This document shows positions 2 through 19,203 of a DNA stretch of 19,203 nt, piece by piece; position 1 is the stretch's first letter; each line of letters opens with the position of its first letter. Both the position numbers and the translations under genes were made by a program. A model generated the notes under the pieces. That model saw only the letters and a program-made list of their open reading frames with translations. It had not been told where the DNA came from and ran no database searches. Location of the stretch: positions 5,735-24,937 of the forward strand of contig CAYLZE010000043.1 of NCBI GenBank assembly GCA_964388035.1. The letters are read 5' to 3'. The stretch comes from an uncultured archaeon. Its GTDB lineage: Archaea; Asgardarchaeota; Lokiarchaeia; Sigyniarchaeales; SOKP01.

Positions 2-1126
2 AGATGGGTTAATACCAATAAAATCCCGATTAAAAATGATAAAGGAGAAGTCTACCAAATTCTGGATGTATCAATGGATATCACGGAGTTAAAGCTGTTT
101 GAAAATAAAATCAAGGATCTCGCCAAATTTCCCGAAGAAAATCCTTTTCCCGTAATGAGAATTGATGAAGAAAAAATATTATATGCTAATAATCCAGCTA
201 AAAAAATGCTCAACCTCCAAGAGGAAAAAAGGATACCCCCATTTCTTAATTCAATGTTGAAAGAAGTTAAAATCTCCAAATCTTTGCAGAGATACGAACA
301 GGAAATAAACAATCGGTATTTATCAATCATTATTGCACCGATTGAAGGAGAGTCTTATTATAATATCTATTGCATGGACATTACAAAAAGAAAGTTAGCT
401 GAAAAAAAATTAACTGAATTCATTTCGAATATTTCCCACGAAATCAAGACCCCATTAACCGCCATAATGCAATCGATTGAAAACTTAAAAAGGTTTGAAG
501 ATTCCTTAACAGTGGAGCAGAAAAAAGATCTCTACGACACCATAAATCAAAATTTAATAAATACATCTGAAATTATTCAAGATTTACTTCTTAGATCTTA
601 TTTAGATGAGAAAAAAATAAAATTAAATTTCGATCTATTTAAAGTGGATGACCTAGTTAAATCGGCCGTTAAATCACTAGCACCTCAAATTAAGATCAAA
701 AATATTGATCTCACTTGTGAAATTGGAAAAGATTTAATAATTCGAGGTGATTATAAAAGAATTGAGCAAGTTTTGCGAATTATTCTGAGTAATGCCGTAA
801 AATACACTAAGAATAGAGGTTCTGTTAAAATAGAAGCCCATGATTATGTTGAAGATTCCTTAAACGTAGGGATATCTGATGGAACCTTGATAAGAATAAC
901 GGATGATGGAATCGGGATTGATAATGAAGATTTATCCCATCTCTTTGAAAGGTATTTTAGAGGGAAAAATGTAAAACAGGTCAGCGGAACGGGGTTAGGA
1001 TTGCCCATTGCGAAAGAATTAATGGAACTTCACAGTAGTAAAATTCATGTAGAAAGTGAGATCGGAAAAGGTTCCTCATTTTCCTTGATCTTTCCAAATA
1101 TTAACCTAAAAGAAAAATATAAATAA
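2..1126 (+). CDS. PAS-domain sensor histidine kinase (PAC-PAS-HisKA-HATPase_c), 5'-truncated by the window edge
   Basis: The frame is open from base 2 (RWVNTNKIPIKNDKGEVYQILDVSMDITELK, a PAC-type motif), so ATG 74 is internal. PAS-like FPEENPFPVMRIDEEKILYANNPA; H box SHEIKTPL; N box ILSNAVKY; G1 DDGIGI; F box LFERYFR; G2 GTGLGL. No TM segment in the visible part. Confidence 0.95.
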   Translation, partial: RWVNTNKIPIKNDKGEVYQILDVSMDITELKLFENKIKDLAKFPEENPFPVMRIDEEKILYANNPAKKMLNLQEEKRIPPFLNSMLKEVKISKSLQRYEQEINNRYLSIIIAPIEGESYYNIYCMDITKRKLAEKKLTEFISNISHEIKTPLTAIMQSIENLKRFEDSLTVEQKKDLYDTINQNLINTSEIIQDLLLRSYLDEKKIKLNFDLFKVDDLVKSAVKSLAPQIKIKNIDLTCEIGKDLIIRGDYKRIEQVLRIILSNAVKYTKNRGSVKIEAHDYVEDSLNVGISDGTLIRITDDGIGIDNEDLSHLFERYFRGKNVKQVSGTGLGLPIAKELMELHSSKIHVESEIGKGSSFSLIFPNINLKEKYK

Positions 1127-1170
1127 GTAGCAATTACTATATTTAAGAAAATCGGTAGTGAAATAATCTT

Positions 1171-1180
1171 ATTTAAGTAG
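1171..1180 (+). promoter_or_regulatory. Candidate archaeal TATA box for response regulator 1
   Basis: ATTTAAGTAG 83 nt before ATG 1254; nearly the same 10-mer (ATTTAAATAG) lies 69 and 72 nt before the starts at 2285 and 4778. AT-rich background limits confidence. Confidence 0.35.
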
Positions 1181-1253
1181 AAGATTATTATTTATATTAT
1201 ATTTTTTTATTTTATGGTATTCACAAGCTCATTTACAGAAAGGGATAAAAAAA

Positions 1254-2132
1254 ATGCACCATTCTTTAATTCTTGTCGTTGAAGATAATATGGATATCTT
1301 GAAGAATCTGAAGATTACGCTGGAATCCTCCAATTATAATGTGATTACAGCATTGGGTGCGGAAAAAGCTTTAAAAGAACTTTCTACGATGGATAAGGTT
1401 CCAGATTTAATTTTGAGCGATATTATGATGCCGGTCATAGATGGATATGAATTTTTTTTAAAGATTTCTTCTAATCCTACATGGAATTCCATTCCCTTTA
1501 TTTTTCTTTCAGCAAAAAGTTCCCCAGATGATGTTAGGTTAGGTAAGTTATTGGGAGCTGATGATTATATTACTAAGCCGTTTCAGATGGAAGATTTACT
1601 AGCGGTAATAAAAGGTAAAATACGGCGTAATGAACATGCCAAATTAATAAATAATGAGCTTAATAAATCTTCCATATTAACATCTCTTAAAAAAGCGTCG
1701 AAAAGTGAACCAAAAAAGTTAGATATCCTTTTGTTCATTGTATATTGGGATGAAGAATATGGTCCTACTTTGAAAGATTATTGTCCTAAGGATGTAATAG
1801 ATAAACCAACTATCGAAAAGATTAGCGAAGAAGTATTTAATAGTTCCCGCTTGATTTTTAATGATAACACAAAATTGAAAGGAGAAACTATTTTATTGGA
1901 CATGCATTATTTAAAAAAAAGGGGATACCTCTTCTTTGATTCTTATCCGGATGACACTAAAAATGCTAAGGAGTTCCCATATATGATTGGAGTCATCTCT
2001 CCTTCCATCACATACCTTCAATCCTTATCCATAAAAAAAGTATTGAATAACCTTTCAATGTGCGTAAAAAGAGAAGAAAAAAACAATATAAGTTATTTTT
2101 GGCAAAATATTGTAAACATTCTCTTAGAATAG
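1254..2132 (+). CDS. Response regulator: N-terminal receiver (REC) + C-terminal putative longin/u-DENN-like domain (paralog 1)
   Basis: REC motifs VVEDN, LSDIMMP (phospho-acceptor D56), FLSAK, KPF. C-terminal part starts LFIVYWDEEYGPTLKDYCP and has a longin-like strand/helix order. REC call is firm; the longin call is by-eye inference. Confidence 0.9.
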   Translation: MHHSLILVVEDNMDILKNLKITLESSNYNVITALGAEKALKELSTMDKVPDLILSDIMMPVIDGYEFFLKISSNPTWNSIPFIFLSAKSSPDDVRLGKLLGADDYITKPFQMEDLLAVIKGKIRRNEHAKLINNELNKSSILTSLKKASKSEPKKLDILLFIVYWDEEYGPTLKDYCPKDVIDKPTIEKISEEVFNSSRLIFNDNTKLKGETILLDMHYLKKRGYLFFDSYPDDTKNAKEFPYMIGVISPSITYLQSLSIKKVLNNLSMCVKREEKNNISYFWQNIVNILLE

Positions 2133-2215
2133 GACACCACCAGTCACTTCTTTTGAAGAGAAATTTTAATATTACTGTGACATTTAAATTACATGTATTT
2201 AGATAAAAAATAAAT

Positions 2216-2225
2216 ATTTAAATAG
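2216..2225 (+). promoter_or_regulatory. Candidate archaeal TATA box for response regulator 2
   Basis: ATTTAAATAG preceded by an A-rich BRE-like stretch, 69 nt before ATG 2285; identical 10-mer at 4706-4715. Confidence 0.4.
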
Positions 2226-2284
2226 AAAGTCAAATTTCCTTAAAAATTGATTTTTTAATTATAAAGGTTTTCTTTAATTAAAAT

Positions 2285-3193
2285 ATGTTATCTGAGACAA
2301 CTAAGGAAAATAATTTAATATTAGTAGTGGATGATGATCCTCTCATTTTAGAAAGTGTCTCAATAATGTTAGAACTGAATAATTTCCGTGTCATTACGGC
2401 AAAAAATGGGGAACGCGCAATTGAAAAACTCTTAAAATTAGAAAGTCCCCCTGATATAATCTTGAGCGATATATGCATGCCTGGAATGGATGGGTATCAA
2501 TTCTTCATGAATGTAATGAAAAATCCTCAGTGGAGTCAAATACCCTTTATTTTTTTAACCGGACTCTCCTCTCCGAAAGAAATACGATTCGCTAAAAGCA
2601 TGGGGGTGGATGATTATATCACTAAACCTTTTAAAGAAAATGACCTATTAGCTATTATTATAGGAAAACTCACTCGAAAAAGTAGATCTCTCCAGGTAGA
2701 AAATACAATTAAAATTAATCATCTGAACTTTGAACGAGAAATTACTTTAAATATTAAAAATCAAATGGATGTTATTTTGATTTTCTACATATGGGATGAT
2801 GCTGATGGACCATTATTGGATAAATCTTATCCCGAAGATCTTCCAAATAAAAGTAAAATTGAAAAGTTAGGAGCACATTTATTCCATTCCTCGCGTCTAA
2901 TTTATGGAGAAAATCCGATTAATGAAGCCGAGGATCTCTTACTTAGAATGAATTCTATCCAAAAAGATTGTTTTATCTATTTCGATTACATCCCCGATGC
3001 ACAAACAAGGGCAAAAAAAAAAGAATACATGATTGCCTTGATTGCCCCAACTATTACATATTATCATACATTTGAAATTCAAAAATTATTTAAAGAACTC
3101 TCTGCTGAAATCAAGAATAAGAGCAATATTAAACTAAAACGATATTGGGATAATTGCATGGTAATTTTAAGTACGTCGAAATGGAGTGAATAA
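2285..3193 (+). CDS. Response regulator: N-terminal receiver (REC) + C-terminal putative longin/u-DENN-like domain (paralog 2)
   Basis: REC motifs VVDDD, LSDICMP (D62), FLTG, KPF. C-terminal LIFYIWDDADGPLLDKSYP ... FDYIPDAQTRAKKKEYMIALIAP is collinear with paralog 1. Confidence 0.9.
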   Translation: MLSETTKENNLILVVDDDPLILESVSIMLELNNFRVITAKNGERAIEKLLKLESPPDIILSDICMPGMDGYQFFMNVMKNPQWSQIPFIFLTGLSSPKEIRFAKSMGVDDYITKPFKENDLLAIIIGKLTRKSRSLQVENTIKINHLNFEREITLNIKNQMDVILIFYIWDDADGPLLDKSYPEDLPNKSKIEKLGAHLFHSSRLIYGENPINEAEDLLLRMNSIQKDCFIYFDYIPDAQTRAKKKEYMIALIAPTITYYHTFEIQKLFKELSAEIKNKSNIKLKRYWDNCMVILSTSKWSE

Positions 3194-4777: not shown

Positions 4778-5803
4778 ATGATCGTCATTTCTTCTCCAAA
4801 TGGATTAATCGGGATTAAAAAATCTATTGAAATATTAAAAAAGGGAGGTTCAGCCATGGATGCTGTTGAAGCAGGGATTCGATTGGTAGAATCAAACCCC
4901 ATTGACCATAGCGTGGGCTTTGGTGGGTTTCCAAATATTCGGGGTGAAGTGGAGCTCGATGCAGGAATAATGGACGGTAAATCATTGAATGCAGGAGCTG
5001 TTGGAGCCATGAAAGAATTTAAACACCCGATTTCCGTCGCAAGAAAGATCATAGACCTTTTACCTCATGTATTTCTCGTGGGCGCTGGTGCAGAACATTT
5101 TGCAGATCAAATGGGTTTTAAAAAATCAAAATTGCTCACTCCCGAAATTCAGAAATTCTGGGAACTGCGTTTGAGAGCAGAATCACCCGATATCGATTTA
5201 AAAAAATTAAAAAAATAACCAGACTTGTGGAAACTCACGGAAATCGGAACAGATCCCGAAAAAACTGCTCAATGGATGGTTCAAAAATCCTCGGAGGATC
5301 CTAACTTTAAAAAATTAGTGGAAGATTTTAATAAATTATGGATGATAACCGGGACGGTTAATTTTCTTGCCCAAGATAAGGAAGGAAATATTTGTGCTGG
5401 AACAAGCACGAGTGGATGGGCGGGAAAATACCCCGGTAGATTAGGGGATTCTCCAATAATTGGGGCGGGTTTGTACGCAGATAATCGTTATGGAGCAGCG
5501 GCTTGTACTGGCATGGGGGAGATGGCGATACGAGCTAGCACTGCACGTAGCGTTATTTTTTATCTTAAAATGGGTTATTCCTTATTGGATGCGGGACGGC
5601 AAGCAATGATCGATCTAAATGATTTAGAAGGTCGTTATTTAAGCCGCATGAATATTGTCATGATGGACAAAGATGGGAATCCTGCTGCCTTCAGTAATGA
5701 TAAAAATCAAAAATATATTTACATTACAGAAAAAATGAGTGAACCTAACATAGAAACTCGCATTCATGTTCCAACAAAAATGCAATGGAACAAAAATAAT
5801 TAA
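4778..5803 (+). pseudogene. Ntn-hydrolase type-2 asparaginase (glycosylasparaginase / isoaspartyl peptidase family) interrupted by one in-frame TAA at 5216-5218
   Basis: ORFs 4778-5218 and 5225-5803 are in the same frame (...DLKKLKK*PDLWKL...). N-part: AMDAVEAG, SVGFGGFPN, ELDAGIMDG, HPISVAR. C-part: G|TVNF nucleophile Thr (5354-5356), TSTSG, PGRLGDSPIIGAG, CTGMGE. Family call is firm; pseudogene vs functional split vs sequencing error is unresolved. Confidence 0.8.
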
Positions 5804-5969: not shown

Positions 5970-6860
5970 ATGGAAGGGTCATTTTATCTTTTAGGTGTTT
6001 CTTTAGCAATAATAAGCGGGATCGTGAATAATTTGGGCTCTGTTTTTCAGAAAAAGGTAGTAAATGATTTGCCTGGTGAAGCCAAATTTTTCAGGAGTTT
6101 AATTAAAAACCCGCTTTGGCTCTTTGGATTAATAATGCAAAACGGAATTGGTGCGATCTTTTTCATGATAGCTCAATTATATATTGGACCGGCGCTCATT
6201 CCCGGCCTAATGGCTTTTGGCTTGATCTTTTTAGCTATCGGCTCAGTAAAAATAGTGGGAGAATCGTTAAAAAAAGAGGAAATTTCAGGCATCATTATAA
6301 TGGTGGTTGCAATTTTCTTATTGGGCCTCTCAGAATTAAGTATAGATATTACGGGTATAGACATGCTCCAAGGAATGTTGATTTTTAATATGACCGTTTT
6401 TACAGTAAGTCTATATGGTGGGACTTTACTCTGCGAAATTCTTCAAAGGAAGAGCGCAAGATTTAAGGGAATTTTACTGTCCATCTCTTCAGGTTTTCAA
6501 TTTTCGTTAACTAACTTTTGGGTAGCCCCCATGATGGCCTTCTTTGCCGCAGTTTTTACTGGTAATGCGAGTTTGGGCGGGATAATTCTTTTTATTGTAA
6601 CCGCCGTGATTTTAGTCGTTTCAAGTATAATCGGAATGGCAGAAATTAACCAAGCATTTCAAGTGGCAAATGCCAGCCGAATGATTCCAATACAACAAGT
6701 TCCCATTCAAATCACGCCCATTCTCGTATATTTCTTGGTTTTTTCATTATTAGCCCCCAGTATCATGTCTTCCTTTTTGGTGGTAATTTCAGTGACATTT
6801 ATAATTATCAGTTCCTTCTTGCTGGCTAAACGGCAAGCACAATTAGAAGCAATTAAATAG
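5970..6860 (+). CDS. DMT-superfamily membrane transporter, NIPA/Mg2+-transporter-like (paralog 1)
   Basis: About 9 hydrophobic segments; LAI.SG..NNLG.VFQKK, LIKNPLWLFGL, GPALIPGL, VGESL..EEI.G, NQAFQ..NAS.MIPI match the NIPA-type DMT pattern. Substrate cannot be determined. Confidence 0.8.
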   Translation: MEGSFYLLGVSLAIISGIVNNLGSVFQKKVVNDLPGEAKFFRSLIKNPLWLFGLIMQNGIGAIFFMIAQLYIGPALIPGLMAFGLIFLAIGSVKIVGESLKKEEISGIIIMVVAIFLLGLSELSIDITGIDMLQGMLIFNMTVFTVSLYGGTLLCEILQRKSARFKGILLSISSGFQFSLTNFWVAPMMAFFAAVFTGNASLGGIILFIVTAVILVVSSIIGMAEINQAFQVANASRMIPIQQVPIQITPILVYFLVFSLLAPSIMSSFLVVISVTFIIISSFLLAKRQAQLEAIK

Positions 6861-8529: not shown

Positions 8530-9420
8530 ATGGAAGGATCATTCTACATTTTAGGAGTTTTTTTAGCAATAACAAGCGGAAGCATTAATAACCTGGGCTC
8601 CGTGTTTCAGAAGAAAGTAGTAAATGAAGTACCCAAAGAAGCTAAATTTTTCAGGAGCTTAGTGAAAAAACCACTTTGGATTACGGGATTGATCATGCAA
8701 CTCGGCATTGGGTCCATCTTTTTCATGATTGCGCAATTATTCATCGGGCCGGCAATAATACCTGGGTTAATGGCTTTTGGCTTGATCTTCTTGGCAATCG
8801 GGTCAGTTAAAATAGTGGGAGAATCATTAAAGAAAGAAGAGATAATGGGCATTATTCTCATGATCATTGCAATTTTCCTCTTAGGGCTTTCAGGATTGAG
8901 AATTGATATTACTACTATCGAAATGCTTCAATTAACGACAATCATTAACATGGTCATTTTTACACTAAGTCTCTACTCAGGATCTATACTCTGTGAAATC
9001 TTCCAAAGAAGAAGTGAAAGATTTAAAGGTATCTTATTGGCAGTCTCGTCAGGATGCCAAGTATCGATAAATAACTTCTGGATAGCCCCTTTAATGGCGT
9101 TTTTTGTTGCCGTGTTTACTGGTACTGCGAGTTTGGGTGGCACAATCCTTTTTATTGTTAATTGCGGAATATTAATTACTTCCAGCATGCTTGGAATAGC
9201 AAAGTTACAGCAAGCGTTTCAAGTGGCAAATGCCAGCCGAATGATCCCAATACAACAAGTTCCCATTCAAATCACGCCTATTTTTGTTTATTTCTTGGTT
9301 TTTTCGTTAGTTGCGCCTAGCATTTTCTCTACAATCTACATGATGATCGCTATAATGTTCATACTCATGAGCTCATTTTTATTAGCTAAACGTCAAGCAC
9401 AATTAGAAGCAATTAAGTAG
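8530..9420 (+). CDS. DMT-superfamily membrane transporter, NIPA-like (paralog 2)
   Basis: Same length (296 aa) and ungapped alignment to 5970-6860; about 72 differences by hand count (~76% identity). Confidence 0.8.
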   Translation: MEGSFYILGVFLAITSGSINNLGSVFQKKVVNEVPKEAKFFRSLVKKPLWITGLIMQLGIGSIFFMIAQLFIGPAIIPGLMAFGLIFLAIGSVKIVGESLKKEEIMGIILMIIAIFLLGLSGLRIDITTIEMLQLTTIINMVIFTLSLYSGSILCEIFQRRSERFKGILLAVSSGCQVSINNFWIAPLMAFFVAVFTGTASLGGTILFIVNCGILITSSMLGIAKLQQAFQVANASRMIPIQQVPIQITPIFVYFLVFSLVAPSIFSTIYMMIAIMFILMSSFLLAKRQAQLEAIK

Positions 9421-11571: not shown

Positions 11572-12516
11572 TTAAAATACTGATGCCATTGCCAAAAATG
11601 AAAATATTAAAACATCTTGGACGAAATGTATGAACCAGGCCCAGAAAAATCCTTTGGTTTCGAGAATACTTTTACCTAAAAACCATCCTAAGAATCCAGA
11701 AAGCAACACTCCAATAATACCATTAGGGATACCGAAATAATGCCCGAGGCCAAAAAATACGGTAGTTATAATGAGGGCTTGCTTTCTTCCTAAATTCTTG
11801 TTGAGCTCCGATAAGGGCGCCGCTCTTAATGTGAATTCTTCATTAAAAGCATTCATTGCAGCTATTAAAAATGCGATAGGGATTAAGGGAAGTGCAGCAA
11901 TAAACATCTCTAGAGTTGGTTGATATGCAATTATTAAAAAGATGAGCATTCCAATTGTAATAACTATGACAAAAGTTCTCCCCAGTTTGGTCCAAGGTTC
12001 TGGTTCTTTCATTCCCAATATTTTAGTAGGTTGAGCAGGAGCATTAATAGTTCCTTTTACTAAATATAAATCTTTCCTAGTTCTTCCAATTATTAATAGA
12101 AATATAAGAATAGCAATGGCGGGCAGCAATCTTAAGAGATGAGTTGCTATGCTCTCAATCCCCCACGATAAATTTGAGGTCCAATTCACCCAAATTTCAC
12201 TATTTCGTATGTATGGGACAACTCCGAACTGCCAACCGCCTCCGAATCCCATAATAAATATTAAAATCAAAATCCCTACAAAAATCCATAGCGATCTTAA
12301 ACTCTTAAGAAGTAGTGTGATTGTAAAAATTATGAGGAGCAAGCCTAAATGAATCCAAGGCCACCAAGCAGGTTCTCCATTCGCAAATTCTCTCCAAAAT
12401 ATGAGAGCTAATGAGCTAGCAACAATCATTGTCATCCAGGCAGTAAATATCATTTTTTGATGTGTTTTTTCAACTAACTTCTCTTTAAATTCTTCTCCCT
12501 CATATGTTTGTTCCAT
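11572..12516 (-). CDS. CPBP-family (Abi / Rce1-like, type II CAAX) intramembrane glutamic protease
   Basis: EEFTLR (EExxxR), FGLGH (FxxxH), HFVQD (HxxxB) motifs; multiple TM segments. Confidence 0.9.
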   Translation of the reverse strand: MEQTYEGEEFKEKLVEKTHQKMIFTAWMTMIVASSLALIFWREFANGEPAWWPWIHLGLLLIIFTITLLLKSLRSLWIFVGILILIFIMGFGGGWQFGVVPYIRNSEIWVNWTSNLSWGIESIATHLLRLLPAIAILIFLLIIGRTRKDLYLVKGTINAPAQPTKILGMKEPEPWTKLGRTFVIVITIGMLIFLIIAYQPTLEMFIAALPLIPIAFLIAAMNAFNEEFTLRAAPLSELNKNLGRKQALIITTVFFGLGHYFGIPNGIIGVLLSGFLGWFLGKSILETKGFFWAWFIHFVQDVLIFSFLAMASVF

Positions 12517-12987: not shown

Positions 12988-15000
12988 ATGGAAAATAAGG
13001 AGGAGGACCAAAAAAGTGTAAAAACAGAGGAATTAAAAGAAGTTCAAAATAAAGATAGGCTCCTTTCCAATTACATGCTCTTTATTATTCCAAGTTGGGG
13101 GAATCTATTGGGACATCCAACTAATGGACGATATGTGGGACAGGAAGTGGATAAAATATCATCCGATATTGTTTTCTTTTTCGCTTCTAATGAGCTCTCC
13201 ATTAAAACAGACAAGGGTGTAATTTATTGCTTATTTGGCTTGGGAAACTACTATACTAAATTTGAATTACAACAAGATGTGGAAATATCCCGTGGTAAAT
13301 ATATTATAGATGAAAAATTGTTGACAGGCATCGTTTTATCTGATTTCGTCTATGATCATCTTGCTTCTTCTAAGAATTTGATCTTAGAGGATGATCCCGA
13401 TGTTATTATTGCAGAAAAAGTTATTAAAATCCCGGTAGATTTATCAGATAAAACAGAAGGACAAATGACTTTCATCAAAGGAGCATTAATGAGAAATGTC
13501 TTCATCCCATACAAGGAAGTCATTCTTAAAATGCTAGATATGATTAATAAAACGGATAGCTATAATATTGATAGAACAGGACACATGCTACTTAGTGGAC
13601 ATGGGGCTTATTTTGATAAAATTCTCGTTTCAGAAGGAAAAAAATCCAATTTACAAGAAGAATACATGAATAGTACAGCGGGAATTCTGGAAATAATCCC
13701 GGGTGCAGATAAATTATTAACTAGTTTATTAACTCCGGTAGAGTTTCAAAAGATTAAATCAGGATTATCGACTCTCAAGGCGATTTATTCCAATCTTAAA
13801 TTTGATCGTTCTTACTTTTATTCGATGTTGGAAGCTATCGCGCAAAAAATACCACCTGAAGCACTTCCACAAATTTCATTAAAAAGCTCACCTCTTGCCA
13901 TCAAACAAACTATACTCTACTCGGCAGAAGATCGAATTAATTCATATTTAGAATGGCCTAATGAATTTCCTAGAAAGGAAAAAGAAACAGAAAAGGTAAA
14001 ACCTACTTATATCTATCCCGAAATGATCTCTGGAACAAATGTAGCTAATTCAACGACAATTAAAGAGTATGATACCATTAAAGAACATGAGGAATTACCT
14101 AAAGAAGATCAATTTGTATTAAGGATTGATAAATCAGAGAAAGTAGAAAAGCGGGTACTTCCAGCCACCCCTTTAGGAGAAGATATTGAAAAGATTTTTC
14201 TTTATCTTAAACATGTAATTGAGGAAGATTATGATATGTCTTCAGTCGGGACAGCTTTTGGTTTAGCTCGGGATAGTCTTCCTCCAACTTTTAAGATTGA
14301 AAATCCACGATATGCTTGGGAAATGAGTAAAATAGAGAACCTTTATATTAAAAAATCAGATAACTTGGGATTACCTGCCAAAGAAAAAGAAGAGATTTTA
14401 GAAAAAATAAATAGCTGGTTACATTTAATCGAAGAAGAAAAAAGGAAAAAGCAAGAAGAATTAGAAGCAGAAAGAAGATGGATTGAGGCAGAACAAAAAC
14501 GATTAGAAGAAGAAAGGTTAGAAAAAGAAAGATTAAAGAAAGAACATCAAGAAAGAGAAAGGTTGGCTCAAGAAAAACTTAGATTGGAAGAAGAAAGAAT
14601 AGAAAGAGAAAAATTAGAAAAGATTCGCTTGCAAAAAGAGCAGGTGAAAAAGCAAAGAGAATTAGAACAAATTGAGGCGCAAGAACAAGAAAGAATTAGA
14701 AAAGAGCAAGAGGAACTTGATAGAGCTAAAAAGGAGCAAGAAAAGCTTGAAAAGGAAAGAGAAGTGAGAGAACAAGAAATATTAGAAAAGGCCAAGCGAG
14801 AACAGGAAGAACTTGAAAAAGAGAAAGCTAAATTAAAAGAAATTAAAGCAGAGCGGAAGAGACAAGAAAAACTCTTAAAAAAGAAGAAAAAAGAAGAAAA
14901 AAAGAGAGAAAAGGAGCGATTGAAAATTGAGAAACAAAAAGCCAAAGAAAAAGAGAAGTTAGAAAAAATTTCTAAAGAACTTAAATCTAGTGATTCTTAG
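12988..15000 (+). CDS. Hypothetical protein: globular N-domain, linker, small helical domain, ~185-aa E/R/K-rich helical tail
   Basis: 670-aa ORF; SD-like AGGTGA at 12978-12983; residues ~482-667 almost entirely E/K/R/Q/L/I. No family recognised. Confidence 0.85.
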   Translation: MENKEEDQKSVKTEELKEVQNKDRLLSNYMLFIIPSWGNLLGHPTNGRYVGQEVDKISSDIVFFFASNELSIKTDKGVIYCLFGLGNYYTKFELQQDVEISRGKYIIDEKLLTGIVLSDFVYDHLASSKNLILEDDPDVIIAEKVIKIPVDLSDKTEGQMTFIKGALMRNVFIPYKEVILKMLDMINKTDSYNIDRTGHMLLSGHGAYFDKILVSEGKKSNLQEEYMNSTAGILEIIPGADKLLTSLLTPVEFQKIKSGLSTLKAIYSNLKFDRSYFYSMLEAIAQKIPPEALPQISLKSSPLAIKQTILYSAEDRINSYLEWPNEFPRKEKETEKVKPTYIYPEMISGTNVANSTTIKEYDTIKEHEELPKEDQFVLRIDKSEKVEKRVLPATPLGEDIEKIFLYLKHVIEEDYDMSSVGTAFGLARDSLPPTFKIENPRYAWEMSKIENLYIKKSDNLGLPAKEKEEILEKINSWLHLIEEEKRKKQEELEAERRWIEAEQKRLEEERLEKERLKKEHQERERLAQEKLRLEEERIEREKLEKIRLQKEQVKKQRELEQIEAQEQERIRKEQEELDRAKKEQEKLEKEREVREQEILEKAKREQEELEKEKAKLKEIKAERKRQEKLLKKKKKEEKKREKERLKIEKQKAKEKEKLEKISKELKSSDS

Positions 15001-16342: not shown

Positions 16343-16714
16343 TAATCCATCCTTTTTGTTGTTTTAAGTGATTTGTTTTTAAAATTCTTTTTAAGATTGT
16401 TTAAAAGAATTAAGCTTAATTAAAGTAATTTTGCGTTATAGAAAATGAATTTCAAGAAAATTCTTTATAGATAACTGTGAATGATGATGATTCTTTTAGA
16501 GTATTCTAAATGAGGTTAAATTTTTACAGATATGGTTAAATCAAGGACGGATGAGAAACAACTTGCATATAAAATTCATGAATCATTATCTAATAAAATT
16601 GCGATATGGAAAAAATATATATATATCTTACAGCTATGTTTTTTATAAGAATTTGATTGCAATGATTAATTTCTTAATAACTTGAATTTCTTAGAATATT
16701 AAATCGAAATATAG

Positions 16715-16719
16715 GGAGG
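16715..16719 (+). promoter_or_regulatory. Shine-Dalgarno site for the GTPase
   Basis: GGAGG 5 nt before the TTG at 16725. Confidence 0.65.
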
Positions 16720-16724
16720 AAACC

Positions 16725-17705
16725 TTGATTGTCAACGAGATCAATATTAAGCTGGTATTGTTCGGACTAGGAGGTATTGGAAAAACTTCCATCGTTAATA
16801 GCTTCTTGGAGCAGCAGATTTCCAAGAAATACTATCCAACGATTGGTTCAAGCATTTCTAAACATGAATATAGGTTGCCCAAATTTATTGTTAAATTGAA
16901 CGTGTGGGACGTTGGTGGCCAGCGCTCATTCAATCCATTGAATCCCGTTTATTTTAATAATAATGATGCCGCGTTTTTAATTTTTGATTTATCTAATCCC
17001 CAAGAATCGCTAAAAGAAATAAAAGAGGTGTATTTGCCAAGTCTGATTGAAAAATCGGAGGATTGCATCTCTTATATTATCGGAAATAAATTAGATTTAA
17101 TAAAGACTGATGATGAATTAAAGCAAATTACGGAAGAATTAAGATTTCCAAATCTCCCTCTTGTTTATGTATCCGCATTAGAAAATAACAATATAAATGA
17201 AGTATTCGAATTAATCATTTTTCATTTTTTACAAGATTTGGAAGTCAAATCTCCTTCAAAAAAGTTTTCAGGGATTTCTGAAGGTTTTTTAAATTACATT
17301 GGCAAGAAAGAAGAGGAGTTATCCCGAGTATTAATAAATAAAATTGATACTAAGACATTAAGATTAGAAGATTTGATAATGCCAGATATAGAAACTACCG
17401 TCCTTCCTACATCCGATATTAATATCGCCAGCATTCCTTATCCAAAACCTATTACTGGGGATCTTAAAAATATTGAGCGCATCATAGAAGAACTTATTGA
17501 ATATAACACAGAGCTATTAAGTGATGTGAAGGATAAAATTTTGCAATTAAAAAAAACGCCCATTGATCAATTAAACCTACAAATCGATAAAATTTCCCTT
17601 GATCTTGACACGTTAAAAATGAACTTGGAGAAAGAAATAGAGGAAATGCTTAAATTTAAAGGTCCTGAAACTGATAAAAAAACTGATAAAATTACATTGA
17701 AGTAG
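16725..17705 (+). CDS. Ras-superfamily (Rab-like) small GTPase with ~150-aa C-terminal extension ending in a helical hairpin
   Basis: G1 GLGGIGKTS, G2 YYPTIG, G3 WDVGGQ, G4 NKLD, G5 VSAL. No C-terminal Cys/CAAX. Confidence 0.93.
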   Translation: MIVNEINIKLVLFGLGGIGKTSIVNSFLEQQISKKYYPTIGSSISKHEYRLPKFIVKLNVWDVGGQRSFNPLNPVYFNNNDAAFLIFDLSNPQESLKEIKEVYLPSLIEKSEDCISYIIGNKLDLIKTDDELKQITEELRFPNLPLVYVSALENNNINEVFELIIFHFLQDLEVKSPSKKFSGISEGFLNYIGKKEEELSRVLINKIDTKTLRLEDLIMPDIETTVLPTSDINIASIPYPKPITGDLKNIERIIEELIEYNTELLSDVKDKILQLKKTPIDQLNLQIDKISLDLDTLKMNLEKEIEEMLKFKGPETDKKTDKITLK

Positions 17706-17715
17706 GTAATTTAAA

Positions 17716-17955
17716 ATGTCAGAAGAATTGATTAATTCAAAACAACAGTTTGTTGATAAATTTATACAGAATCTAACCAAAATAGAAGCATTAATTAGAA
17801 CGTTAAGTTCACAGAATGCAGAACAAATAGTAAGCGCGATAGATGATACTTCAAAGAAATTAGAGAAAATGAAAACAGAATTTATTGAAACCCATGAATC
17901 GTTTACTAAATCTTCCATGAAGGTGGAGAATAAAGGATTAGAAGAAAATTCATAA
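17716..17955 (+). CDS. Small alpha-helical protein (stand-alone helical hairpin)
   Basis: 79-aa ORF 10 nt after the GTPase stop, amphipathic heptad pattern, aligns with the C-termini of both neighbours. Confidence 0.75.
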   Translation: MSEELINSKQQFVDKFIQNLTKIEALIRTLSSQNAEQIVSAIDDTSKKLEKMKTEFIETHESFTKSSMKVENKGLEENS

Positions 17956-17978
17956 TTGATGTGAAAAAGGTGTGAAAA

Positions 17979-18626
17979 TTGTTTAAAAAAAAAATGACAG
18001 AAGTAAACGTAAAGGATTTTGAAAAATTAAGTGAACGCATGGATAAATTCGAGCAGAAATTTTTGGAACAAAAAATAAGTTATGATGATCAACTCGAGCG
18101 CATTCATAATGAGCTTCTCGAAATTAAAGAACTCTTTGTCATAAATCAAAAATTAGTCGAACGAGATAAAGGTTATGAAGATAGAATTACCAATTTAAAA
18201 ACGGAAGTAACGGAAATGCAAACCTTACTCACCAGAAATCAGAGAGATATCGAAGAACACATTAAAACGCAAGAGGAAATCATCGTTAGTCTCATTAACA
18301 AATTTAATGACCAAGCGTTATCAAAATTCAATCAATTCACGGCTGAAATTGAAGAACTGAAAAACCAGCAAGATGTTTTGAGAATCTCTTATACCGTTAA
18401 TGAAAAAAAATTAATAGAAAAAATTAAAGATACGATATCCTCTGAAATCAAAAATGCTGTAAAAGAGAAAGAAAAAGAGATTTTAATGAATCTTTGGATT
18501 CGAGATCTACGAGAAATAATTTCTAATTTTGAAAAATTGAAAAGAATGAATCCAGAAGAATTTAATTTAAAGCTCAATCAAATTGCGGATATTGTTGATT
18601 CATTTAAAAAAAAGCTTCAGGCTTGA
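17979..18626 (+). CDS. Coiled-coil protein with C-terminal helical hairpin
   Basis: 215-aa ORF 23 nt after the previous stop; SD-like AGGTG at 17968-17972 before TTG (ATG 17994 is an alternative); long heptad-rich stretch with almost no Pro/Gly. Confidence 0.85.
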   Translation: MFKKKMTEVNVKDFEKLSERMDKFEQKFLEQKISYDDQLERIHNELLEIKELFVINQKLVERDKGYEDRITNLKTEVTEMQTLLTRNQRDIEEHIKTQEEIIVSLINKFNDQALSKFNQFTAEIEELKNQQDVLRISYTVNEKKLIEKIKDTISSEIKNAVKEKEKEILMNLWIRDLREIISNFEKLKRMNPEEFNLKLNQIADIVDSFKKKLQA

Positions 18627-18663: not shown

Positions 18664-19203
18664 TTAATTTTTGATTCTTGGTGGGGGAATATAAACCTTT
18701 CGCATTCCTTCCAACAATTCTATGGCTCCTTCTGGGCAGAAATGAGCACAAACAGTACAGCCAATGCATAAATCTTCATTTACCTCTGCTATACTATCCC
18801 CGTTGAGTTCAATTGCTCCCACAGGACATTTTTCAGTGCACGTACCGCAACCCACGCATAAATCCGAATTTACCTTGGATAGGAAATTAGTCCAGCTAAT
18901 TAGAGCAGACATGCCCATTCTCCACCACTCGAATTCGCCGCAACAATCAGCACAACAATTGCAAAGAGAGGTCTCTTCTCTTGTTATATTGGAATGGGGA
19001 TGGAATGCTTTATGAATTAGCCCCGCTTCTTCTGACTTTTTTAGAATTTCTATCGCTTCATCTTTCGAAATCATGCGAGCAAATCCTTGTTCTGCACAAT
19101 ATTTTGCCGATTTCCCAAATGTAAAGCAATTTTCTCTAAGATCTGTTATTTTACAGGGATCTCCCAATAAATCCTTGTGCTGCCTGCAGAAACAATGACC
19201 TAC
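18664..19203 (-). CDS. 4Fe-4S dicluster (ferredoxin-domain) protein, 5'-truncated by the window edge
   Basis: Frame open to 19203 (VGHCFCRQHKDLLGDPCK...). Two ferredoxin motifs CVGCGTCTEKCP and CIGCTVCAHFCP, plus CxCR...C...C and CNCCADCC. Confidence 0.92.
   Translation of the reverse strand, partial: VGHCFCRQHKDLLGDPCKITDLRENCFTFGKSAKYCAEQGFARMISKDEAIEILKKSEEAGLIHKAFHPHSNITREETSLCNCCADCCGEFEWWRMGMSALISWTNFLSKVNSDLCVGCGTCTEKCPVGAIELNGDSIAEVNEDLCIGCTVCAHFCPEGAIELLEGMRKVYIPPPRIKN

Follow-up and report, generated by a model that had tools for sequence, protein, structure and literature searches.

A Rab-like GTPase and a coiled-coil protein encoded side by side in one lokiarchaeal family, with a duplicated GTPase tail in one genus

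The analysed window, a 19,203-nt stretch of a lokiarchaeal contig, contains a small GTPase gene followed by two shorter genes of the same orientation. The locus raises the question of whether the three products are related to one another and whether they act together. An initial annotation had proposed that all three share one helical hairpin of about 45 residues, that this hairpin joins them in a hetero-oligomer, and that it replaces the lipid anchor of the GTPase. The three open reading frames were located on the + strand at 16725-18626 of the window. Their coordinates confirmed the co-oriented arrangement and the intergenic gaps of 10 and 23 nt described before. The following features were assigned:

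16714..16719, + strand: Shine-Dalgarno-like GGGAGG, 5 nt 5' of the TTG start of the GTPase gene (from the sequence)
16725..17705, + strand: Rab-like (RasL) small GTPase, 326 aa, TTG start (Pfam, TIGR00231, PDB matches, AlphaFold2, motif counts, hydropathy)
17457..17654, + strand: GTPase tail module, residues 245-310; the core proposed earlier, residues 257-301, is 17493-17627
17716..17955, + strand: 79-aa stand-alone copy of the GTPase tail; its core, residues 12-56, is 17749-17883
17979..18626, + strand: 215-aa coiled-coil protein (CC), all helical
18009..18251, + strand: N-terminal stalk of CC
18252..18473, + strand: conserved segment of CC, residues 92-165, candidate binding surface
18483..18617, + strand: C-terminal helix-break-helix of CC, residues 169-213, possible distant homologue of the tail module

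The G domain of the GTPase comprised residues ~4-175 with intact G1-G5 motifs. Pfam Ras matched with an E value of 2e-26 and TIGR00231 scored above its cut-off. Among 30 GTPase orthologues, G14, G19, K20, T39, G64, Q66, N121, K122, D124, S150 and A151 were invariant. The nucleotide-binding motifs, the switch II glutamine among them, were all invariant or nearly so. The best-conserved part of the family was switch II with the segment after it. Rab7 was the closest PDB sequence match (E 1e-34) and Rab3C the closest fold of the G domain (Z 19.9, rmsd 2.4, 167 aligned). Against the Rab consensus, RabF2 and RabF5 matched in part, F1 read IGSSI or IGSNI, and the F3-F4 region held a family-specific FNPLNP segment. 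The deviations at F1, F3 and F4, together with the missing terminal cysteine, indicate a Rab-like RasL protein and not a Rab. This probable assignment rests on best matches, the G-domain tree comprising only the GTPase family and nine paralogues of the same genome. An N-terminal amphipathic helix ahead of the G domain defines Asgard ArfR and Arf (10.1101/2024.02.28.582541). Such a helix was absent from the GTPase, in which strand beta-1 begins at residue 4. No fused roadblock or longin domain was present; the C-terminal region was predicted to be all-helical or disordered, with no beta sheet and no Pfam match to either domain.

AlphaFold2 placed a small helical subdomain (residues 176-217, window 17250-17375) directly after the G domain, its predicted helical part spanning 184-217, followed by a disordered linker at 220-247 and helices at 245-276 and 280-310. 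The subdomain lay outside most fold matches, and its residue F188 was invariant, with L189, L199 and N205 near-invariant. Some orthologous GTPases (P0140, P0144, P0148, P0152 and P0153; also L047:2122-3315, L062:1848-3023 and L048:2903-3682) carried an extra C-terminal domain of ~30 aa after a long Lys/Pro-rich linker. Its motif resembled YExENPxKKAxWxGKETKxFxxWK and no Pfam family matched above cut-off. Six more proteins encoded in the window's genome had this domain, one of them (G000 C78:4528-5796) in three copies. Interrupted GTPase genes were seen in L006, L019 and L100 (G369:C71:75000-79500). In the last, an in-frame stop closes the G domain and a separate tail frame of 160 codons follows, either a natural split or an assembly error.

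The absence of a C-terminal cysteine from the GTPase was confirmed, and no prenylatable cysteine was found in the last 10 residues of the 30 orthologues. Archaeal Rab-like GTPases generally have no such residue (PMC4915359, PMC10933270). A cysteine within the last five residues occurred in 3 of the 50 small-GTPase ORFs of the window's genome and was missing from the other 47. The residues C-L-I-E close one small-GTPase ORF of this genome (C90:8501-9013); formally they make a CaaX pattern, which probably arose by chance. Since the missing cysteine is the default state, it calls for no explanation, and the idea that a hairpin module took the place of a lipid anchor was left unsupported. Hydropathy analysis gave no transmembrane segment in the GTPase, the 79-aa protein or CC, with a maximum 19-residue hydropathy of 0.46 for the 79-aa protein and 0.42 for CC.

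The tail of the GTPase and the 79-aa protein matched in HHalign with 96.9% probability (E 1e-10), 27 standard deviations above column shuffles, which scored 9.1 +/- 1.5; a reversed control scored 10.8. All runs together ranged from 94 to 97% with E values of 1e-7 to 4e-11, and 97% was retained with tails from other genera only. A tail HMM built without this genus ranked the 79-aa ORF first among the 10,102 ORFs of the genome. The register proposed in the initial annotation was chosen by the small-protein matrix in 30 of 30 GTPases. By these profile comparisons, the tail and the 79-aa protein are clearly true homologues, and the proposal of a shared module at GTPase 257-301 and residues 12-56 of the 79-aa protein was borne out. 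No Pfam, NCBIfam, PDB or ESM Atlas family covered the tail. Searches of PDB sequences, PDB folds and the ESM Atlas with the tail returned generic coiled coils or nothing, and a word-index search with the tail alone returned only the query itself. Pfam matches of the 79-aa protein to BLOC1_2, Snapin and dynactin p22 (E 0.02-0.06) were absent from its orthologues and from the tails and were rejected as coiled-coil noise. A third tail-like match in the genome, the 148-aa C7 (E 5e-4), was the A/V-ATPase subunit D by its context and was discarded.

The distribution of the genes was followed in a phylum-wide sample of 300 genomes, 68 from the window's family and 232 others. The conserved region of CC was found in 52 of the 68 family genomes and the tail module was convincingly present in 55. 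All 52 genomes with CC carried the tail. In 51 of them the GTPase gene was the immediate upstream neighbour of CC, on the same strand of one contig, often with gaps of -14 to +60 nt, so that the synteny check came out very strong. Three genomes held a tail without CC, each at a contig end, and 13 family genomes had neither. One genome (G310) contained the GTPase-CC pair in two copies. The GTPase gene was inherited, lost and duplicated together with the CC gene. Neither CC nor the tail was found convincingly in the 232 other genomes, which gave one weak, partial coiled-coil match to CC. The tail profile matched 47 of 1.84 billion representative proteins: the same GTPases, their fragments, the 79-aa proteins of the genus and one repeat-protein artefact. 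No GTPase-CC fusion was among these matches. The module was restricted to one lokiarchaeal family among the genomes sampled, and homologues of CC carry the label Promethearchaeota.

Recurrent neighbours of the operon loci were a convergent gene for a 4Fe-4S protein and metabolic or transport genes, as seen in flanks of 1.5-5 kb with part of the neighbours annotated. In the window, the convergent 4Fe-4S dicluster protein gene is located at 18664-19203 on the - strand; relatives are ~380 aa long. It was found 3' of CC in 30 fetched loci, a number that counts some genomes more than once, and probably reflects conserved gene order, not function. Further upstream, a 670-aa protein (12988-15000, + strand) has a Glu/Lys/Arg-rich, highly charged C-terminal helix of ~190 aa and showed no match in Pfam or NCBIfam. 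An Rce1-like protein of the CAAX protease family is encoded at 11572-12516 (- strand). Two closely similar hydrophobic paralogues of 296 aa (5970-6860 and 8530-9420, + strand), likewise with no match in Pfam or NCBIfam, stand on either side of a Gfo/Idh/MocA oxidoreductase gene. Consecutive ORFs of 146 and 192 aa at 4778-5803 (+ strand), separated by 6 nt, look, by their sequence alone, like two halves of an asparaginase/Ntn-hydrolase gene. An ordinary histidine kinase gene followed by two response regulator genes occupies 74-3193 (+ strand).

The 79-aa gene had a much narrower distribution. It was present in both genomes of the genus and in four additional assemblies whose CC is 69-75% identical, and it was retained in all genus-level loci seen. 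The small-protein profile gave a single match in each of 56 other family genomes, and this match almost always lay within a frame of GTPase size; where matches in short frames were checked, they were contig ends or interrupted GTPase genes. Candidate stand-alone hairpins outside the genus (G184, G349) were dismissed as contig-end fragments. A quick G-domain tree rooted with paralogues placed the genus (support 99) inside the family. Because of this nested position, the two-gene state is ancestral and the 79-aa gene a later tandem duplicate. The family-wide unit is two genes, and the three-protein state is derived and confined to one genus. The dN/dS of the 79-aa gene was 0.18, 0.18 and 0.10 in three close pairs, compared with 0.17 for the GTPase gene; the 79-aa gene is under purifying selection.

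The two copies of the module have diverged in a complementary manner. Column 5 was F or Y in 71 of 71 tails of other genera and F in the 79-aa proteins; the GTPase tails of the genus have N or S. Column 8 was N in 61 of the 71 tails and in the 79-aa proteins, and L or M in the genus tails. The family motif F-x-x-N was thereby kept by the 79-aa proteins and lost from the GTPase tails of the genus. These tails retained the LKKTPI turn and, in helix 2, the acidic end, both of which are altered in the 79-aa proteins. The same was seen in the family scores, which were 8-12 for genus tails and 17-20 for 79-aa proteins in helix 1, and 22-35 and 16-18, respectively, in the turn and helix 2. In HHalign, the copies scored 65 and 52 against the family profile and 30 against each other. 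Such a pattern would be expected if one sequence that occupied two positions of a bundle had given way to two specialists, and is taken as a lead, not a proof. It counts as a single observation, since the rows of the genus stem from about three lineages and a single duplication.

CC was predicted by AlphaFold2 as a single helix at 11-188, a break, and a helix at 192-214. Orthologous open frames were mostly about 170-330 aa long. The N-terminal stalk showed a heptad period of 3.5 residues, was little conserved and varied in length between orthologues. In segment 92-165, D132 and I136 were invariant and S137, N141 and E142 near-invariant, and its conservation was about that of the C-terminal hairpin (169-213), with invariant W173 and near-invariant P192. 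No Pfam or NCBIfam family matched CC above cut-off, and searches of the PDB, by sequence and by fold, and of the ESM Atlas returned generic coiled coils or nothing.

Whether the C-terminus of CC is a third copy of the module was less clear. Columns 9, 19 and 42 were identical in the three 45-aa segments of the window, as the initial annotation had noted; among the orthologues of the 79-aa protein, K42 occurred in only one of eight rows. The matching hydrophobic columns were confirmed, with columns 1, 2, 9, 12, 16, 19, 27, 31, 38, 41 and 45 hydrophobic in all three. A helix break was predicted at GTPase 277-279 and CC 189-191, in agreement with the earlier description, except that the CC proline falls in column 24 and not in column 23. 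Across the family, tail and CC agreed at F/W5, L9, I12, I/F16, L19-K20-K21, L/F27, I/L31, D/N32, L/I38 and K42. From the predicted secondary structure we infer an antiparallel geometry for the helix pairs of both.

HHalign of the tail against the CC C-terminus returned the proposed register over 42-47 columns, at 2-9% in all runs together. Local runs gave 3-9% (E 0.004-0.012, score 16-17), and stalk windows of the CC family scored no worse, at 17-22. The global score was 14.3, compared with 5.8 +/- 2.3 for heptad-preserving shuffles, none of which reached it (0 of 50). The joint window score was equalled by 1 of the genome's 127 coiled-coil-rich proteins. The tail HMM never reported CC at E<=0.01 in CC-carrying genomes or at E<=0.001 among the 1.84 billion proteins. 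Compared with coiled-coil-like windows from the genome, average tails and CC proteins scored at about the 95th-98th percentile, and cognate tail-CC identity was 7.3 of 45 family-wide. Few pairs of the family matched as well as the one in the window (BLOSUM 36; mean 14), which explains why the similarity caught attention by eye. Four genus tails matched CC with 81% in HHalign; the best score of other four-member tail subsets was 19.7. The idea that genus tails had become CC-like was nevertheless rejected, since cognate pairs of several other genera reached the same level (scores of 32-36, compared with 19-37), and the 81% match was kept as no more than a hint. Altogether, the profile evidence leans slightly towards homology of the CC C-terminus with the tail module. 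Of the module claimed for all three proteins, the tail and 79-aa copies stood, and the CC copy was only suggestive.

The explanation that we prefer, tentatively and at somewhat less than an even chance, is a family-specific soluble GTPase module with a hairpin headpiece on a coiled-coil stalk, to which a 79-aa subunit was added in this genus. An intact Rab-like G domain is joined through a flexible linker to the conserved helix-break-helix tail, which may take at least two positions within a bundle of helices. Most genera would have a pair of GTPase tails that fill these positions and dock on the C-terminal hairpin or hairpins of CC, forming a headpiece at the tip of the stalk, for which the hairpin headpiece of ESCRT-I is a precedent. 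In this genus, the 79-aa protein would permanently take one position, so that the GTPase-small-CC assembly would carry fewer G domains on each stalk. The G domain on its tether may switch with GTP and act on CC 92-165 or on a third protein, and the stalk would serve as spacer or scaffold and not as membrane anchor. A more specific version, that all three segments stem from one hairpin and form an independently evolved, ESCRT-I-like heteromeric headpiece on a stalk with a Rab-like switch, is possible but doubtful. The hetero-oligomerisation put forward initially fits the synteny and the divergence pattern, and the tail-CC homology on which it drew was not significant by HHalign. A complex prediction with GTPase 1-312, two copies of CC 92-215, GTP and Mg, run without the 79-aa protein, gave no answer (score 0.00, mark 0.32) and counts neither for nor against a complex.

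CC might instead be a coiled-coil dimer of the effector or GEF type that grips the switch regions of the GTPase via 92-165. Its hairpin would then be self-capping and its likeness to the tail convergent, and the tail would dimerise the GTPase, by self-pairing in most genera and by pairing with the 79-aa protein here. Coiled coils are used by Rab effectors and by GEFs of the Sec2 type, and Rab-effector complexes were among the fold matches. The conservation and invariant polar residues of CC 92-165, the strong conservation around switch II and the weak tail-CC profile similarity all suit this explanation. We consider it unlikely. One full-length tail-CC register, in which the aromatic, LK and FK positions coincide, beat the heptad shuffles, and the tail module was found nowhere but in this GTPase family and in the stand-alone copy, with a distribution that matches CC. 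The weak HHalign probability and the low cognate identity would also agree with mere co-regulation, in which CC has no direct contact with the other two proteins and the likeness is that of ordinary amphipathic helices; the exceptional standing of the window's pair in the family means that the by-eye match was partly lucky. Against this, joint presence, absence and duplication over 68 genomes and the tight coupling of the genes are unusual, small GTPase genes of MK-D1 generally being outside operons with their regulators (PMC10933270), and this explanation appears very improbable.

Another alternative concerns the 79-aa protein itself, which could be a microProtein-type competitor that ties up the tail of the GTPase or the hairpin of CC to tune or block assembly. 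It duplicates the interaction domain alone and has no G domain, its gene is optional at the family level, and it diverges faster than its neighbours, with a dN between genus lineages of 0.5-0.75 compared with 0.3 and 0.17. If the copy were a decoy, the parent tail would be expected to stay as it was, yet it has lost two conserved positions that the copy kept; this complementary loss favours an obligate partner over a decoy. The position of the gene between its putative partners, with gaps of 10 and 23 nt, suits stoichiometric co-expression. A role as competitor is quite improbable. In PMC7534434, microProteins are defined as small proteins with only the interaction domain of a larger relative, and the 79-aa protein likewise has a single interaction domain derived from a larger protein. 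It differs from that description in the complementary change of the parent domain and in the shared operon, suggesting a subunit over an inhibitor.

Among known systems, the described Asgard Rab-like or RasL GTPases also have a Ras-superfamily G domain closest to Rabs and no prenylation cysteine, and are single-domain proteins or roadblock/longin fusions with short C-termini (PMC4915359; PMC10933270; 10.1101/2024.02.28.582541). The GTPase studied here differs in its tail of 150 aa, whose module belongs to no known family, and in its dedicated operon partner. Rag GTPases with Ragulator are similar in that a C-terminal module of the GTPase recurs in stand-alone partner subunits. Here, the module is all-helical and not of the roadblock or longin type, the G domain is Rab-like and a lipidated anchor subunit is missing; the operon is not a Rag, ArfR or roadblock/longin system.

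The closest architectural analogue was ESCRT-I (Vps23/Vps28/Vps37), in which several subunits each provide a helical hairpin. Its headpiece consists of homologous helical hairpins on a coiled-coil stalk, and Asgard archaea encode a Vps28-like hairpin as a separate gene (PMC10936438). In ESCRT-I as in the operon, one hairpin ends a long coiled coil and another is joined by a linker to a functional domain, which is a GTPase here in place of the cargo domain. By this analogy, the operon may act like ESCRT-I. Homology to ESCRT-I or the steadiness box was not detected with PF09454, PF03997 or an Asgard steadiness-box (SB) profile, and PF09454 (Vps23_core / steadiness box) had no match at the operon locus. 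The Asgard SB profile of 31 sequences matched the tail, the 79-aa protein and CC with less than 1% in HHalign, within the range of shuffles, and ranked the three operon proteins 68, 209 and 1564 in the genome. Fold searches with the operon proteins mainly picked up the G domain or the long helix, and no ESCRT or ubiquitin genes were seen near the operon in the partly annotated flanks of 1.5-5 kb. Elsewhere, a 679-aa protein (L065, G000:C30:27122-29161) has a C-terminal steadiness-box-like hairpin that matched the SB profile at E 6e-19, being itself part of the profile; weaker matches were C39:25786-28137, C6:49391-51226 and C45:16451-18526.

Literature searches retrieved no description of a GTPase-CC operon, and no eukaryotic descendant of the system was found. 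The GTPase-CC pair with its genus-specific duplicated tail is real and undescribed. Small GTPase genes of MK-D1 are generally not located in operons with their regulators, and the partners of Asgard Rab-like GTPases are mostly unknown for that reason (PMC10933270). The near-obligate partner gene found here, for a protein that is neither roadblock nor longin, makes this a cognate pair that is open to direct expression and testing. The duplicate in the genus offers a natural comparison of a two-subunit with a three-subunit state, as homomeric helical bundles turn heteromeric, a route that has been proposed for eukaryotic trafficking complexes. If all three segments did descend from one hairpin, the genus would record such a homomer-to-heteromer step, by tail duplication and then complementary degeneration, in an Asgard GTPase complex.
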